Below, in pieces: positions 1,932-19,439 of a stretch of 64,000 bases of DNA. Under the pieces are notes generated by a model. That model made no database searches, was not told the DNA's origin, and saw only the letters and a list, made by a program, of their open reading frames with translations. The stretch's first letter is position 1, and the number at the start of each line of letters is the position of its first letter. The stretch is taken from assembly GCA_964291495.2 (NCBI GenBank), contig OZ219872.1, positions 448,001 to 512,000 of the forward strand. Direction: 5' to 3'. The translations under genes were made by a program, and so were the position numbers. Source of the stretch: Dehalococcoidia bacterium. GTDB lineage: Bacteria; Chloroflexota; Dehalococcoidia; UBA2979.

Positions 1932-3418
<1,487 letters not shown>

Positions 3419-10097: not shown

Positions 10098-11756
<1,659 letters not shown>

Positions 11757-11842
11757 GCGCTCCTCCGCCGTTACGTCACCGCGCCGAGTGTAGCAGCCGC
11801 GCGAGTCAACGCTAGCGGCGAGGCTCGACGTGGCCGGCGGCT

Positions 11843-13402
11843 TCAGCCTGCGCGGACCCTGTCGCGCGCCTCGACGATCGCGCGGAGCTTCGCCTCGGCG
11901 ACCTCCGAGGAGGCAACGGGGTTGTCCGCGAAGGTTGCGAAGCCACAGTCCGGCGTGAGCAGGACCCGCTCCCTGCCGAACAGCTCGTTGGCGCGCGCGA
12001 TGCGCCTCCCGATCTCGCCGGGCGGCTCGACGGCGTCGACCTTCGGGTTCACCACCCCAACGGCGATGCGCTTGTCCTCGGGCAGATCGCGCAGCACGGC
12101 CAACTCGCCGGCGCGCGGCGTGGACAGCTCGAGGAACAGCGTGCCCACCGGCGCGCGCCCGAGGAAGCCGAGCAGCGGCCGGTAGTCGCCGGCTAGGGCC
12201 GCCGACTCGTCGGGCGTCCAGTTGCCGCGGCAGACGTGCAGCCCCAGCGACTCACGCGGGAGGCCGCGCACGACCTCCTCGAGCAGACCGGCAGCGAAGT
12301 CCAGCTCCGAGTCCTCATCGAGCCGCTCGCTCAGCGCCCCGCACATGAAGCTGCGCGTGGCGCCCGGACTGCCGTGGACCACCTCCATCAGGACGGGCTC
12401 GTCGAACTGCACCAGCGCGGCGCCCGAGGCAAGCAGGAAGTGCGCCTCCTCGCGCAGCACCCGCACCACGTCGCGCGCGAGGTCCTCGCGGCTCTCGTAA
12501 GGGCGCTCGGTCAGGCAGTCGAGCCACATCATGCGCGTCAGCAGATACGGGCCGGGCAGCGCGACTTTCACGGGGGGCCTCGCGAACGATGCGACGAACT
12601 CCAGCTCGTGCAGGGCCAGCGGGCGGCTGCGCCCGAGCGCGCCGTAGACCACCGGGTGCCTGACCTCGGAGGCCGGCACGTCGAGGACGCGCAGCTCCTC
12701 CTCGAACTCCGCCGGGTCGTCGACGATCGCCGTGAGGTCGCTCAGCGGGATCAGCTGGCAGTTGTCGAGGCGGCCGCCCACGAAGCTCGCGTAGTTGTCG
12801 CGCCGCTGCTCGCCGTCGGTCACGACGTCGGCCCCGGCCCGCAGCTGCGCGGCGAGGCTCAGCCGCACCGCGTCGTCCGCCGTCGCCTGGAACTCGGCCT
12901 CGCCGAGCCGGCCCTCGAGGCGGTCGTGCATGGCCCGCAGCATCCAGCGCGGCCGCGGCCAGCTGCCGACGCCCATCACCGAGAGCGGCGCGATCACCCT
13001 CGGTGCGGCCGGCTCGGGCAGCGACTCCGGGATCGTGACCGCGACGCGCAGTTGCTCGCCGATCGTGCCCACCGGGGCGTCCCGGCGCTCGGAGACCCCG
13101 GGGGCCGCGACGGCCGCCCGCGAGCGCTCGTCGAGCGGGCCCTTGGATACCAGGTAGCTGCGTCGCTCGCCGTGCTTCGTCCACGAAACGAGCTCGTTGC
13201 TCGTCAGGCGGCACCAGGCCGGAAGCTCGACCTCGACCGTCGAGTCGGTCGAGAGGATCTCCAGCAGGCCGCCGGGCTCGAGCGGGTCGATGTGGCGGCG
13301 GATCAGGAGCAGCAGGCCCCCGCCGCAGTCGAGGTCGCCGCCGTCGAAGCTGACGTCGGGGTCGTGATCGTGCCGCTCGATCGGGTCCATCGGCGGGTCC
13401 AT
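11843..13402 (-). CDS. Fusion: N-terminal TusA-like sulfur-carrier domain + cobalamin-independent methionine synthase catalytic (MetE core) domain
   Basis: N-terminus: [39 protein letters not shown] (TusA fold). C-terminus: [33 protein letters not shown], Zn ligands LHVCRGN / FLE / TPDCGF. Confidence 0.88.
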
Positions 13403-13426
13403 CGATCTGCCGGTCGGCGAGCCGTT

Positions 13427-13789
13427 CTAGTAGGAGATGGAGGGCGTACCGCCGGCGAGGAACTCGACCAGCTTTGCGCCGCCGACGATCACGGCGCCGT
13501 CGACCAGGTTGTCCGTTTCGAGGTCGCGCTTGTTGTAGCAGGGCGCGCAGACGTAGATCTCACCGCCGCCCTCGGCGAACAGGCCCATCAGCTCGGAGAG
13601 GGCCATGAAGCCGTCCTCGTGGATGTCGTCGGCGTAGCCCCGCTCGGCCAGACGCACGCCCTCGGTGCTGAGGAACACGACTGTCTCCTGCTCGGAGCCG
13701 AGGGCCGCGTTGGCCACGACGAAGGCGACCGTCGCCCGGTCGGGATCGTCCCCCGCGTGGGTGAGGCTGACGCAAAACTTCCCGGCCAA
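13427..13789 (-). CDS. DsrE/DsrF-like family protein
   Basis: DDPDRATVAFVVANAA..VVFLSTEGVRL..GGEIYVCAPC..RDL..GA.IVG; TTG start with a purine-rich SD. Confidence 0.88.
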   Translation of the reverse strand: MAGKFCVSLTHAGDDPDRATVAFVVANAALGSEQETVVFLSTEGVRLAERGYADDIHEDGFMALSELMGLFAEGGGEIYVCAPCYNKRDLETDNLVDGAVIVGGAKLVEFLAGGTPSISY

Positions 13790-13810
13790 GATCGTTCCCT
13801 TCCTCGCGAC

Positions 13811-14080
13811 CTACGCGCGCTGCGTCTGCTCGATCCAGTAGTGCGGGTGCTGCGCCTGAAGCAGGCGGCGGCCCGTGAGGCGGCACCAGGCCGGGATGTC
13901 CTCGGGTGCTCCGAGGTCGTACGCCGTCAGCTTGAAGACCTCGCCCGGGCCGAGTTTCCGCATCCGCGTCCTGAGCAGGATGATCACCTCGCCGCATCCC
14001 ATGTCGCCGGCGTCCCACTCGTCGGCGACGACCATGTCTTCGATCACAACGGGTGGCGCGGCCGGTTCGGGCTCAGCCAT
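13811..14080 (-). CDS. TusA (SirA)-like sulfurtransferase family protein
   Basis: WDAGDMGCGE..LGPGEVFKLTAYDLGAPEDIPAWCRLTGRRLL. Confidence 0.88.
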   Translation of the reverse strand: MAEPEPAAPPVVIEDMVVADEWDAGDMGCGEVIILLRTRMRKLGPGEVFKLTAYDLGAPEDIPAWCRLTGRRLLQAQHPHYWIEQTQRA

Positions 14081-14128
14081 CGTGCTCCGTCCGCGCCCCG
14101 TCTCGCCGCCGTGCGATCCGGTACCGCG

Positions 14129-14157
14129 ATCCTACGGGACGATGGCGCTCAGGGCAT
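14129..14157 (-). promoter_or_regulatory. Putative promoter of the tusA-dsrE-tusA::metE operon
   Basis: ATGCCC-N17-TAGGAT. An imperfect palindrome centred on CGGTACCG overlaps the predicted start site. Confidence 0.4.
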
Positions 14158-14187
14158 TTCCGGACGCGCGGGGCGTCCTCGGCTGCC

Positions 14188-15951
14188 TCAGCGCGCGGCG
14201 GGAGGCTCCACGCGGACGGTGATGATGTCGGTGTCGTGGAACTGCTGGTGACGCACGGAGGAGGCGTAGTTGCGCAGCAGCCGCAGCGAGACATCCTGCT
14301 CCACCATCGTCTCCGTATCGTGCTGCTGGAGCTGCCGTAGCCGGTCCTCCATGTTCTCGTCGTCGCCCCCGCCGATGAACTCAAGGTCGGCCGCGGGACC
14401 ATCGCTGGAGGCCAGCACGATCAGCTGGCGCTCCTCCTTGTCCTCCTCGTCGTCCTCGGTCTCGGCGAGCAGTCCCTCGAGGTCCAGCGGAGCCAGGGTC
14501 AGCAGCGTCTCCTCGGCGACGGCGCCGAGCCGGTCCTTCATCGCGGTGTCCCAGCCCCGGCTGTCCGCGAAGCGGGCGATGAACTCGTTGAGCTGCGGGA
14601 GGGAGTCGATGTGGAGCGGGGACTGGAAGCGCATGCGCCGCGGGTTGGTGAACTCCAGGTAGAGGATCATCACGACGGCGGCGAGTCCGCCGGTGGTGAT
14701 GCCGCTCGCGAGCATCGCGTTCAGCACCGGGCCGAGGTCGGGGAGGGCGAAGAGCTTGAACTGGAAGGCGGCGCCGATCCAGAAACAGACGCCGGCGACA
14801 GCGATCTTCTCGTTGTTCTGTTCGTTCTGGATCACGGTTCGCGCGCCGTCCACGAAGAGGCTGCCGGTGACCATGATCAGGTAGCCCGTCATCACCGGCC
14901 CCGGGATGCTGCTGAGCAGCCCCGAGACCTTCGGCAGGAACGCCAGCAGGATGAAGAAGCCGCCGATGCTGTAGCCGAGCGTGCGGGCCGCCACGCCGGT
15001 GATCTGCGTGAACGAGATGATGCCCGGGTTGATCGCGTTGGGCACCGTCCCCGCGAGGGCCGCCAGGAAGTTGCTCGCGGCCCCGCCGGCCACGGCGCCC
15101 TGCACCCCGCGGAAGTCCACCGCCCGGTCCTCGCGCCAGGCGACCCGCTGCATCGAGATCGCCGCGCCGTTCGCCTGGATCGAGATGATCACGCCGAGGA
15201 ACAGGAACGCCGGGACCAGGGTCCAGAACTCGAGCCCGAAGTCGAGCGCCAGCTCCGGCCGCTCGGCGGGCAGCCCGATCCAGGCGGCCTCGGTGATCCG
15301 CGACGTGTCGAAGATGCCGAGCGCCCCGGCGACCACGCAGCCGACGAGGATGCCGGCGATCGGGCCCCAGAAGCGCAGCAGCGGGGAGCGTCGCAGCGTG
15401 AGCGCCGCAGCGACGACCATCGTCACGAACGCTGTGAGCGATGCCTCCTCCGGCTCCACCTGCGTCGCGTCGTCCAGCAGGTCGAAGACCACCGAGGCGA
15501 GGGTGATCGAGAGGATCATCATCACGGTGCCGCCCACGGTCGGCGTGACGACGCGCCGCATGATGAACAGCCAGCGCGAGATCGCGAGCTGGGCGATCGC
15601 GGCGACGATCAGCAGCGTCGTCAGTGTCGCCGGGCCCCCGTCCTGCACGGCAGTGATGCAGAACGGGATCGCGAAGGCGGCCGTGAACATCGGCAGCACC
15701 GCACCGGCGCCGACGAAGCCGAGCCGCCGCACCTGGATCAGCGTGGAGACGCCGACGACGATCAGCGAGGCGAAGACCATCCAGACCACGTAGGGCTCGC
15801 CCCGCCCGGCCGCGTTGGCGACGATGACGGGCGTGACGAGCAGCGTGGCGGACGCGATCAGGCTGAACTGCGCGCCGAGACCCAGGGTTCTCACGAGTGG
15901 CGGACTCTCGTCTGCCTCGTACTGCGGGTTGCCGAGCGCTGGCGCCGTCAA
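14188..15951 (-). CDS. NCS2 (xanthine/uracil) family permease with C-terminal degenerate RsbW-like (HATPase-fold) domain
   Basis: Y.ADESPPL..LGAQ, STLIQ..GFVGAG, P.V.GTV, QITGVAAR, FLPK..SIPGPV match NCS2. The last ~145 aa are soluble and follow the anti-sigma-factor layout. Confidence 0.8.
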   Translation of the reverse strand: MTAPALGNPQYEADESPPLVRTLGLGAQFSLIASATLLVTPVIVANAAGRGEPYVVWMVFASLIVVGVSTLIQVRRLGFVGAGAVLPMFTAAFAIPFCITAVQDGGPATLTTLLIVAAIAQLAISRWLFIMRRVVTPTVGGTVMMILSITLASVVFDLLDDATQVEPEEASLTAFVTMVVAAALTLRRSPLLRFWGPIAGILVGCVVAGALGIFDTSRITEAAWIGLPAERPELALDFGLEFWTLVPAFLFLGVIISIQANGAAISMQRVAWREDRAVDFRGVQGAVAGGAASNFLAALAGTVPNAINPGIISFTQITGVAARTLGYSIGGFFILLAFLPKVSGLLSSIPGPVMTGYLIMVTGSLFVDGARTVIQNEQNNEKIAVAGVCFWIGAAFQFKLFALPDLGPVLNAMLASGITTGGLAAVVMILYLEFTNPRRMRFQSPLHIDSLPQLNEFIARFADSRGWDTAMKDRLGAVAEETLLTLAPLDLEGLLAETEDDEEDKEERQLIVLASSDGPAADLEFIGGGDDENMEDRLRQLQQHDTETMVEQDVSLRLLRNYASSVRHQQFHDTDIITVRVEPPAAR

Positions 15952-16151
15952 GGCTGCCTCCCGAAAGGAGATTGGGGAGTCACCCGGTGGCCCCGGTCCG
16001 CGGCGGACGGGGCCGCCCGCTCCTGGCGCTCACACTATAGGCTGCCCCGCCCCCGCGTGCGCGGCAGCCGCGATCTCGCTCGTGGTTGAAGCTGTCGGTG
16101 CTGAGGACCGGCTGCGTGCTGTGGTCCCCGCAGAGCACCAGCGCCTGGAGA

Positions 16152-16228
16152 TGGTGGGCGATGGAGGGCTCGAACCTCCGACCTCCCGGGTATAGACCGG
16201 ACGCTCTCGCCTGCTGAGCTCATCGCCC
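16152..16228 (-). tRNA. Degenerate duplicate of tRNA-Val with anticodon TAT (probable pseudo-tRNA)
   Basis: 73/77 identical to the tRNA at 16277-16353. Changes: U8>G, a D-loop A>G, U33>C, C36>U. Stems and CCA are intact. Confidence 0.8.
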
Positions 16229-16276
16229 CGGCGCACGGGCGCCTGCCTCGCGGATCGCGCCCTGCCCGCAGGGGCT

Positions 16277-16353
16277 TGGTGGGCGATGGAGGGCTCGAAC
16301 CTCCGACCTCCCGGGTGTAAACCGGACGCTCTTGCCTGCTGAGCTAATCGCCC
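16277..16353 (-). tRNA. tRNA-Val(TAC)
   Basis: GGGCGATTAGCTCAGCAGGCAAGAGCGTCCGG-TTTACAC-CCGGGAGGTCGGAGGTTCGAGCCCTCCATCGCCCACCA. Confidence 0.96.
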
Positions 16354-16404
16354 CGGCGCACGGGCGCCTGCCTCGAGGATCGCGCCCTGCCCGCACGGCC
16401 TTCG

Positions 16405-16434
16405 ATGCTAGGAGCGCGCGGATCGGCCGGTCAA
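16405..16434 (-). promoter_or_regulatory. Sigma70-type promoter for tRNA-Val
   Basis: TTGACC-N18-TAGCAT immediately upstream of the repeated leader. Confidence 0.65.
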
Positions 16435-16462
16435 CCGCGTGGCAGCGCAGCCCTCGCCGGCG

Positions 16463-16663
16463 CTACTGCCCCGGCGGCGGCTCGTCCGGCCGGCGCCGCA
16501 GCAGCGTCCCGATGCCGACGACGAACCACAGGTAGCCGAGGATCAGCAGCAGCTCGAACGCCCCGCGCGCGTAGCGGCCCGCCAGCGCCTCGACCAGGTC
16601 GCCGCCCAGCCAGAGGTTGACGAGCAGTGCGGCGAAGATCACAAGATGCCGCGGCCAACCCAT
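16463..16663 (-). CDS. Small two-helix membrane protein (66 aa)
   Basis: MGWPRHLVIFAALLVNLWL..ELLLILGYLWFVVGIGTLLRRR; GGAGG SD upstream of the ATG at 16663. Confidence 0.6.
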   Translation of the reverse strand: MGWPRHLVIFAALLVNLWLGGDLVEALAGRYARGAFELLLILGYLWFVVGIGTLLRRRPDEPPPGQ

Positions 16664-19364: not shown

Positions 19365-19439
19365 GGCAGGGTAGCTCAGTGGTAGAGCAGCGGACTCATA
19401 AGCCGTCGGTCGCCGGTTCAAATCCGGCCCCTGCTACCA
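19365..19439 (+). tRNA. tRNA with CAT anticodon, probably elongator Met
   Basis: GGCAGGGTAGCTCAGTGGTAGAGCAGCGGA-CTCATAA-GCCGTCGGTCGCCGGTTCAAATCCGGCCCCTGCTACCA. It lacks the initiator C1:A72 and three G-C anticodon-stem pairs. Met versus Ile2 was assigned by acceptor-stem resemblance only. Confidence 0.9.

Follow-up and report, generated by a model that had tools for sequence, protein, structure and literature searches.

Barrels of the MetE family activate a thiol on zinc for alkylation, and proteins of the TusA, DsrE and rhodanese families transfer sulfane sulfur between cysteines, as in the TusA-TusBCD-TusE, DsrEFH and archaeal DsrE3A/TusA relays. Both kinds of protein are encoded side by side, and partly in one polypeptide, in a 64,000-nucleotide stretch of a sponge-associated Dehalococcoidia genome (assembly GCA_964291495.2, contig OZ219872.1, positions 448,001 to 512,000; genome G000, contig C6 in our set, GC about 72%), which we call the window. 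Three minus-strand genes at positions 11843-14080 specify a TusA-like carrier, a DsrE-like protein and a fusion of a second TusA domain with a core MetE-like barrel. On balance, this trio is probably a self-contained, horizontally spread module in which a dedicated cysteine relay would serve sulfur-sulfur chemistry at a Zn/Cys354 site, acting on a homocysteine-type amino acid. The multi-phylum coupling of a MetE-type barrel with sulfur carriers, up to covalent fusion, is not described in the literature searched. The sequence-only reading that first drew attention to the locus knew of no characterised MetE with a fused sulfur carrier, and literature searches, which did not extend to supplements, indeed returned no paper on a TusA/DsrE/MetE-fusion architecture. 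Term searches of the accessible text of PMC7857596, the GapMind 2026 preprint and PMC13188914, supplements again excepted, did not find it either.

Two described kinds of core MetE enzyme invite comparison. The closest solved structure is MesD of Shewanella (3rpd; E 5.7e-21 and 78 bits in a PDB search). The fusion resembles MesD in having a single MetE barrel without the folate barrel, in its Zn ligands and Ser/Glu/Asp contacts, and in an extra insertion on the catalytic face. However, the similarity reaches only 78 bits, whereas assignment to MesD asks for at least 390 bits to ACIAD3523 in the accessible text of Price et al. (2021, PMC7857596); our value was obtained with the 3rpd sequence, not with ACIAD3523 itself. 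The loop that carries Cys354 is missing from 3rpd, and the partners of the new enzymes are TusA and DsrE-like proteins or, in sister clades, OsmC-like or rhodanese proteins. The core-MetE/MesB enzymes of Dehalococcoides and Wood-Ljungdahl organisms are minimal MetE forms without a folate domain from the same bacterial class, and, in the accessible text of PMC7005905 and PMC7857596, take their methyl group from methylcobalamin or corrinoid proteins. In contrast, no corrinoid iron-sulfur protein (CdhD/AcsD) exceeded its cut-off in five module-bearing genomes (0/5), while four of 14 control genomes were positive. No carrier fusion is described for MesB, and the terms 'TusA' and 'DsrE' do not occur in the accessible text of PMC7857596.

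The trio is tightly packed, with intergenic gaps of 21 and 24 nt, and lies in a run of five co-oriented minus-strand open reading frames: an NCS2-family permease, the 89-, 120- and 519-residue proteins of the module and a methylmalonyl-CoA mutase. The TusA-like gene (13811-14080, 89 aa) scores 30.9 bits with the Pfam TusA model (cut-off 28.6), and the DsrE-like gene (13427-13789, 120 aa) 49.3 bits with Pfam DsrE (cut-off 22.7). The fusion gene (11843-13402, 519 aa plus stop) consists of a TusA domain (residues about 14-88; 13139-13363), a Pro/Ala-rich linker (residues 89-137; 12992-13138), which varies in length and sequence across aligned homologues, and the core MetE-like barrel (residues 138-519; 11846-12991). 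Its start codon may be M1 or M5; the identical database protein P0001 has 515 aa. The arrangement, the domain calls and the quoted motifs (DxGDxxCG, CAPC, the HxC, E and C ligands and the extra cysteines) of the sequence-only reading thus held up in Pfam searches and a codon-by-codon check, the fused TusA domain by way of structure matches that back a sub-threshold score.

Within the barrel, Meth_synt_2 (PF01717) is matched from residue 145 to 341 and beyond, scoring 74.5 bits (cut-off 21). There is no Pfam match to Meth_synt_1, the folate barrel, so the earlier statement that this barrel is absent stands. Scores with the named methionine-synthase families are low: 49.5 bits against a cut-off of 929.95 for full-length MetE (TIGR01371), and below the cut-off in all ten NCBIfam families listed, with PRK04326 best at 146.6 against 406. 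The core models tested included PRK04326, PRK09121, PRK00957, PRK06233, PRK01207, PRK06520 and PRK06052, and ten relatives likewise fell under the cut-offs of the named core methionine-synthase models. In a maximum-likelihood tree (quick IQ-TREE) of 60 core domains, 15 of them outgroup rows, the other 45 rows formed one clade with SH-aLRT support of 98. By these profile scores and this tree, the MetE-like domain is placed outside the named methionine-synthase families, in a predicted distinct subfamily that we term FMC.

The active site of this subfamily is strictly conserved. S147, E198, D334, H389, C391, E425 and C486 are present in all 45 subfamily rows, the last four of which we take to be the Zn ligands by homology with MetE and MesD. 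In the alignment with 3rpd, S147, E198 and D334 fall in its GS-PKP, DGEQ and FDEP motifs. The accessible text of PMC7857596 gives Ser22, Glu73 and Asp188 as the 3RPD residues that hold the amino acid by its carboxyl and amino groups, and the alignment makes S147, E198 and D334 their predicted equivalents. Because these homocysteine-binding residues are intact in 45/45 rows, a free homocysteine-type amino acid would still be bound. The proposal of the sequence-only reading that the Zn site acts on a protein-bound thiol or persulfide therefore has to be narrowed, as the thiol would not be purely protein-bound. The retained amino-acid-binding residues also argue against a thiol of the coenzyme M type, as used by epoxyalkane:coenzyme M transferase, a MetE-family Zn enzyme with a coenzyme M pocket and epoxide-pathway neighbours, and the suggested role in epoxide detoxification found no support.

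Three extra cysteines had been noted in the fusion: C215 (DNCQL), C296 (WLDCL) and C354 (SFMCG). C215 and C296 are limited to the fused clade, but C354 marks the whole subfamily: the F352-M353-C354 motif (12341-12349) occurs in 45/45 subfamily rows and falls in a gap in 14 of 15 outgroup rows. It sits in a stretch of 28 residues where MesD (3rpd) has 7. This stretch directly follows the D334 strand, which by barrel topology would put it on the catalytic face, and C354 is a candidate catalytic cysteine. Further signature residues of the subfamily are mostly acidic or aromatic (D202, D229, D241, E335, E366, E399, F207, Y286 and W395). One fused homologue, P0128 (503 aa), by eye keeps the TusA cysteine and has lost H-x-C, the last Zn cysteine and the FMC cysteine; it may be an inactive paralogue.

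The codon for residue 354 differs in two metagenome loci. In L059 (5685-5687) and L081 (5679-5681), a single in-frame TGA is aligned exactly with the C354 codon (RTFM-TGA-GSL and NSFY-TGA-GAL, respectively), and both frames run past it through HxCRGNW, the Glu ligand and NPDCGF. The two proteins are 36% identical, and the genes beside them are intact under translation table 11. A database protein 69% identical to the L081 protein has Trp at position 354, most simply because a gene caller read TGA as Trp. We infer that TGA is decoded as selenocysteine (Sec) at this codon in both loci. In L059, a 7-bp GC-rich hairpin with four further pairs starts 9-14 nt after the UGA. Selenocysteine in known selenoproteins is almost always found at a catalytic, redox-active position, and a Cys/Sec pair at 354, if real, would point to a catalytic role of this residue.

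Other possible cases were also inspected. The split genes at L048 and L053 were rejected as Sec candidates, as their stops are TAA and TAG at other positions, and all ten subfamily gene matches among 401 Chloroflexota genomes are free of in-frame stops. The TusA and DsrE genes of genome G029 read with Cys, not Sec. Selenoprotein forms are known for DsrE-like (UxxC), OsmC-like (UxxT), AhpD/CMD-like and rhodanese-like proteins (accessible main text of PMC13188914); the partners described here hold Cys versions of the same motifs (CAPC and CxxT). The terms 'MetE', 'homocysteine' and 'cobalamin-independent' have no occurrence in the accessible main text of that review, which includes no MetE-family member, so that the TGA forms of L059 and L081 would be an additional, new and directly testable selenoprotein family.

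Four unrelated loci have genes for the selenocysteine machinery no more than a few kb away from a core-MetE gene. The sets selD-yedF-selB (L088:7150-11090) and selD-selA-selB (L057:6657-10851) adjoin subfamily genes, selB lies 3.6 kb downstream of the fused gene of G029 (L035:13583-15676), and another selB stands beside an outgroup core-MetE gene (L096:2218-4107). In L081, a YedF-like DsrE gene is directly upstream of the TGA-containing enzyme gene. The selD gene of the window's genome (G000:C5:1608812-1609747) has one in-frame TGA, as do those of 18/18 genus relatives, which indicates that this lineage decodes selenocysteine.

This setting suggests a minor rival explanation, in which the module handles selenium or detoxifies reactive sulfur, with the enzyme coupling selenium or sulfane sulfur to a homocysteine-type acceptor, or methylating it. 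The adjacent sel genes (L088, L057 and L035), the YedF-like gene of L081 and the use of selenium throughout the genus fit such a role, and so does a TusA and DsrE pair in G025 that stands with an ArsR-rhodanese regulator and a transporter and without MetE. We nevertheless consider it very unlikely. Genes for selenium use commonly adjoin selenoprotein genes, so the sel genes next to several subfamily loci may be accounted for by TGA-containing versions of the enzyme or of its partners, with no part in selenium transport. Moreover, selD is present irrespective of the module, selB also adjoins an outgroup gene (L096), and the YedF model TIGR03527, which describes a TusA-like and a DsrE-like domain in one protein and gives 212.7 bits for the true YedF of L088, has no match in the small TusA or in the DsrE-like protein at E ≤ 0.01.

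The G025 locus just mentioned (L036:5432-8148 on G025:C9) encodes a TusA (53.7 bits), a 120-aa DsrE-like protein and a major facilitator superfamily (MFS) transporter, with a divergent gene for a fusion of an ArsR-type helix-turn-helix and a rhodanese domain. The same type of regulator is found at L059:9205-9912. The TusA/DsrE carrier pair thus occurs also in a setting other than the MetE-like module, and the layout is reminiscent of sulfide-stress operons.

The carriers of the module keep the cysteines expected for a relay at strictly conserved positions. In the small TusA, C29 (13994-13996, within DAGDMGCGE) aligns with the cysteine of GLRCPEP in E. coli TusA/YhhP (1dcj, 3lvj), and a second cysteine, C66, lies within IPAWC; both are invariant in 16/16 homologues. 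The CPxP motif is replaced by CGEV in the small TusA and by CGGG in the fused domain, and both stay far below the cut-off of 78 bits for the NCBIfam TusA equivalog (32.7 and 24 bits). The fused domain also remains under the Pfam cut-off (24.8 bits at residues 31-86, against 28.6), and its assignment to TusA is made because it matches the E. coli TusA/YhhP structures 1dcj and 3lvj (E about 7e-4). Its candidate carrier cysteine, C26 (13325-13327, within DGGDLDCG), is invariant in 34/34 fused proteins, and C64 is present in at least 90% of them. The DsrE-like protein carries VCAPC, with C81 and C84 both invariant in 20/20 homologues; its nearest solved structure is the DsrE/DsrF-like 3mc3 (E 5.3e-9), with whose cysteine C81 aligns.

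A search with the module's DsrE-like protein found a single DsrE-like gene in the genome and did not match a three-subunit DsrEFH/TusBCD set. Of the genome's three TusA-type sequences, two belong to the module and the third is a canonical TusA encoded at another site. With one DsrE-like and three TusA-type sequences, the relay looks dedicated. It resembles the known TusA/DsrE relays in that a TusA fold with a cysteine at the canonical position is encoded beside a DsrE fold with a conserved cysteine. It differs from them in having CG(E/G) rather than CPxP and a single 120-aa CxxC DsrE-like protein, and in that the end acceptor would be a MetE-family enzyme instead of a tRNA-thiolation or Dsr protein.

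The fused architecture is widespread, which bears on the possibility that it is an assembly or annotation artefact, a one-off fusion or a mis-joined gene pair. A word-indexed database search scored 8000 candidates, of which 4972 reached E ≤ 0.001, and the best 120 of these are all full-length fused proteins from many contigs (498-702 aa, 73-100% identity over 97-100% of the query). A genome scan with one genome per species found 23 loci with the fusion, and the fused clade has a support of 100. The artefact explanation is thereby refuted, and the sequence-only reading of the three genes as one unit is supported; the few frameshift-split copies were not counted in its favour. These copies, in which the fusion is split into two frames by frameshifts or sequencing errors, are at G002:C204:2941-4495, L029:3722-5279 and L033:4187-5687.

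The 23 loci belong to Dehalococcoidia/Chloroflexi/Chloroflexota (17), Acidobacteria/Terriglobia (3), Planctomycetota (1) and Betaproteobacteria/Burkholderiales (2). TusA-like, DsrE-like and fusion genes stand in the same order in 22 of them, and at the exception, L031, the contig ends 200 nt upstream. The trio likewise recurs in 7/7 fused-type metagenome loci with about 800 nt or more of upstream sequence. When all open reading frames of 12 diverse loci were clustered, the trio alone was common across phyla. In the tree, the window's enzyme stands closest to one from an Acidobacteria genome (78% identity), and the module thus seems to have moved between phyla. Within the window's genus the fusion is present in 10 of 18 other genomes, the remaining eight having ordinary full-length MetE only, and the FMC subfamily as a whole occurs in nine of the 401 sampled Chloroflexota genomes. 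In G029, a HemN-like radical SAM gene (L035:9954-11369) overlaps the stop of the fused gene by 4 nt, an arrangement seen in this lineage only.

Sponge-derived data also contain the locus. In one sponge metatranscriptome run, contigs span portions of the fusion gene, its junction with the DsrE gene and the permease; this is weak evidence for expression, because DNA can occur in such a library, and the contigs give presence rather than transcript ends or levels. A sponge-metagenome contig of 4.6 kb has an identical gene order at about 93% identity. Most sequencing runs covered only small shares of the stretch.

The wider subfamily shows variations of the same partnership. From metagenome contigs scanned with a profile, the best 80 of 564 relatives were retained. 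Neighbours were annotated with phmmer, using queries from the window and two related genomes, and representatives were checked with Pfam and NCBIfam. The fused proteins form group A (16 rows, support 100, one row cut at a contig start). In group B, genes for TusA, DsrE and a TusA-OsmC fusion precede the enzyme gene (L046, L048, L052, L055 and L080, and partially L054, whose upstream sequence is missing); both domains of the TusA-OsmC protein were detected in 4/4 cases tested. The TusA domain of these proteins, which contains LPAWCRL, is very similar to the N-terminal domain in the window's fusion, so that the fused architecture looks like a group B arrangement after loss of OsmC. An apparent TusA-OsmC-MetE triple fusion was seen by eye in P0166, in which Pfam detected the C-terminal part only.

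Group C (10 rows) has an OsmC-like neighbour, often with a two-domain rhodanese; genome G025 falls here and has a CMD/AhpD-like gene as a further neighbour. In both B and C, the OsmC-like partners carry CxxT. Group D (15 rows) has SBP-like and acyl-CoA-dehydrogenase-like (ACAD-like) neighbours, with or without OsmC; the former is a relative of the Rv1680 family (200.6 bits, cut-off 400) and the latter of the Rv1679 family (383.5 bits, cut-off 600). A Mycobacterium tuberculosis gene adjoining Rv1679/Rv1680, considered as a possible relative, was dropped, as literature and protein searches gave no support. Within 3 kb of the outgroup genes, none of the neighbours characteristic of these groups was found in 15/15 rows.

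From the observed anatomy, conservation and co-occurrence, together with the TGA at codon 354 of two relatives, we infer the direction of transfer, the substrate and the product as follows. The TusA-like and CxxC DsrE-like carriers would act with a third carrier, the TusA domain tethered to the barrel by its flexible linker. Sulfane sulfur, or possibly a dithiol/disulfide equivalent, would move from carrier to carrier, reach Cys26 of the tethered TusA domain and then pass to Cys354. Cys354 would react with the Zn-bound sulfur of a homocysteine-type amino acid, and the resulting chemistry would be of the S-S type (persulfide or disulfide), unlike that of ordinary methionine synthases, which transfer a methyl group. 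The order TusA, DsrE, fused TusA and the making or breaking of a C-S bond, both put forward in the sequence-only reading, stay at the level of prediction. The two-domain rhodanese of group C and the TusA/DsrE pair of groups A and B favour sulfane sulfur as the transferred species, with a dithiol/disulfide relay as the alternative.

Several observations weigh against this relay mechanism. The group D branch keeps C354 without TusA, DsrE or rhodanese genes nearby, so a carrier relay is not universal to the FMC subfamily. Moreover, the OsmC partners of this branch have no cysteine at all, and the OsmC partners in general lack what we take to be the second cysteine of classical OsmC proteins. Proteins of the TusA and OsmC folds can also serve non-sulfur roles. 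The module itself is accessory, being absent from 8/18 genus genomes. As for the selenocysteine decoding, the SECIS-like (selenocysteine insertion sequence) hairpin of L059 is no better than those of shuffled sequences (z -1.13), and L081 has no good hairpin. Finally, no riboswitch (S-adenosylmethionine or other) or other regulatory element links the module to methionine or sulfur: positions 14050-14300 gave no Rfam match at E ≤ 1, and Rfam matches over the whole window were to rRNA and tRNA families only.

The main rival explanation is that the enzyme is an ordinary folate-independent core methionine synthase and that TusA, DsrE and OsmC merely protect, repair or regulate a thiol-rich active site. 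MesD as the closest solved relative, the complete set of homocysteine- and Zn-binding residues and the automatic database name 'methionine synthase' are in line with this explanation, and the acidic and aromatic signature residues could box an onium-type methyl donor. On the other hand, all five genomes checked hold another methionine synthase: full-length MetE is found in G000 (a separate gene, 486 bits), G009, G013 and G015, and an S-methyl_trans protein in 5/5, including an open reading frame of MetH size in G029, which is without MetE. A plain methionine-synthase role would thus be redundant. The corrinoid iron-sulfur protein, as noted above, was not found over its cut-off in the five module-bearing genomes. 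The model of MesX, the partner of MesD (DUF1852, PF08908), was matched in 0/5 module-bearing genomes, but also in 0/14 control genomes. Furthermore, the covalent carrier fusion, the two strictly co-conserved carriers and the possible Sec codon argue for a catalytic rather than a protective role. We consider an ordinary methionine synthase an unlikely explanation.

A more specific form of the S-S relay reading is a persulfide-dependent homocysteine synthase. A Zn-held Cys354 persulfide would attack C-gamma of an activated homoserine, e.g., O-phosphohomoserine, and a second cysteine (Cys354 or Cys26) would resolve the mixed disulfide and release homocysteine, in parallel to the persulfide/disulfide mechanism of ThiI and MnmA. 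Sulfur would in this way enter the methionine pathway without pyridoxal phosphate (PLP): the TusA-DsrE-TusA persulfide relay would load Cys354 (possibly Sec), and the Zn site would join sulfur to an activated four-carbon amino acid, making the C-S bond of homocysteine or of a similar sulfur amino acid. We hold such PLP-independent sulfur entry, with this bond as its product, to be conceivable but improbable, and the homocysteine synthase itself to be rather unlikely. The amino-acid pocket, the Zn site and the extra cysteine are all conserved, as it would require. However, the subfamily has no new basic signature residue for a phosphate or succinate leaving group.

The metabolic context of the genus fits a homocysteine synthase at first sight. 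No full-length PF01053 Cys/Met PLP enzyme was found in G000 or in 18/18 other genus genomes, where matches are partial (about 30 bits, profile positions about 52-220). MetX was found in 0/18 genus genomes, and MetA and HcyBio each in none of the five genomes checked, which include the genus members G000, G009, G013 and G015. Thus, no known homocysteine-forming enzyme was found in the genus among PF01053, MetX, MetA and HcyBio, a search that did not include the MetM/MetO route. SAH (S-adenosylhomocysteine) hydrolase, CysK/CysM and a sulfite-reductase-type protein are present, with MetE, SAH hydrolase and CysK in all four genus members named. However, the eight genus genomes without the module share the gap, and 5/5 module-bearing genomes of other lineages have PF01053 enzymes. 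The gap is suggestive of a place that the module might fill, but the genome profile does not discriminate.

Carrier-protein routes to homocysteine are known: in MetO/MetM, a thiocarboxylate route leads from O-phosphohomoserine to homocysteine (Hasebe et al., 2024, cited in the accessible text of the GapMind 2026 preprint). The likeness is that a protein-bound sulfur donor feeds the methionine pathway. There, a ubiquitin-like protein carries the sulfur as a thiocarboxylate, and the enzyme is PLP-dependent and of the threonine-synthase type, whereas the carriers of the module would hold sulfur on cysteine and its enzyme is a Zn barrel, for which the homocysteine role is hypothetical.

All components of the module belong to known families; its possible novelty lies in a new reaction and in new selenoprotein members. 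S-S or C-S chemistry on homocysteine-type substrates, if true, would be a new reaction type for a well-studied superfamily. Thousands of database proteins annotated as 'methionine synthase II family', from soil, sponge and marine metagenomes, would take on a different meaning, and sulfur amino-acid gaps might be closed in uncultured lineages such as the Dehalococcoidia of the window. Should PLP-independent C-S bond formation be true, FMC would represent an enzyme class not recognised so far, and its selenoprotein members would be the first in the MetE superfamily.

A link of the flanking permease to the module is doubtful. The NCS2-family permease (14188-15951, minus strand, 587 aa; Xan_ur_permease, 101.7 bits) and the methylmalonyl-CoA mutase (10098-11756, minus strand, from the list of open reading frames) adjoin it within its own genus only. 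The permease was rejected as a functional partner on two grounds: each genome has 5-8 such paralogues, and in G011 and G012 the permease gene is broken although both genomes retain the module. Permeases of this type in the genus are about 590 aa long and carry an acidic C-terminal extension, about 150 aa in length, outside any Pfam model.

The 107-nt spacer between the permease and TusA genes (14081-14187, minus strand) contains a genus-conserved block that includes CGGTACCG and TAGGAT/TACCAT, as seen in 13 aligned upstream regions. The sequence-only reading had given the trio its own predicted promoter. A sigma-70 scan of 11500-16500 did not bear this out, as it found none ahead of the TusA gene; its sole site, 16434-16405, precedes a tRNA pair at 16155-16353. 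This pair and a tRNA gene at 19365-19436 are the three tRNA genes of the window outside its rRNA operon end, which comprises a 16S gene (1934-3418), the start of a 23S gene (1-1236) and two further tRNAs between them.

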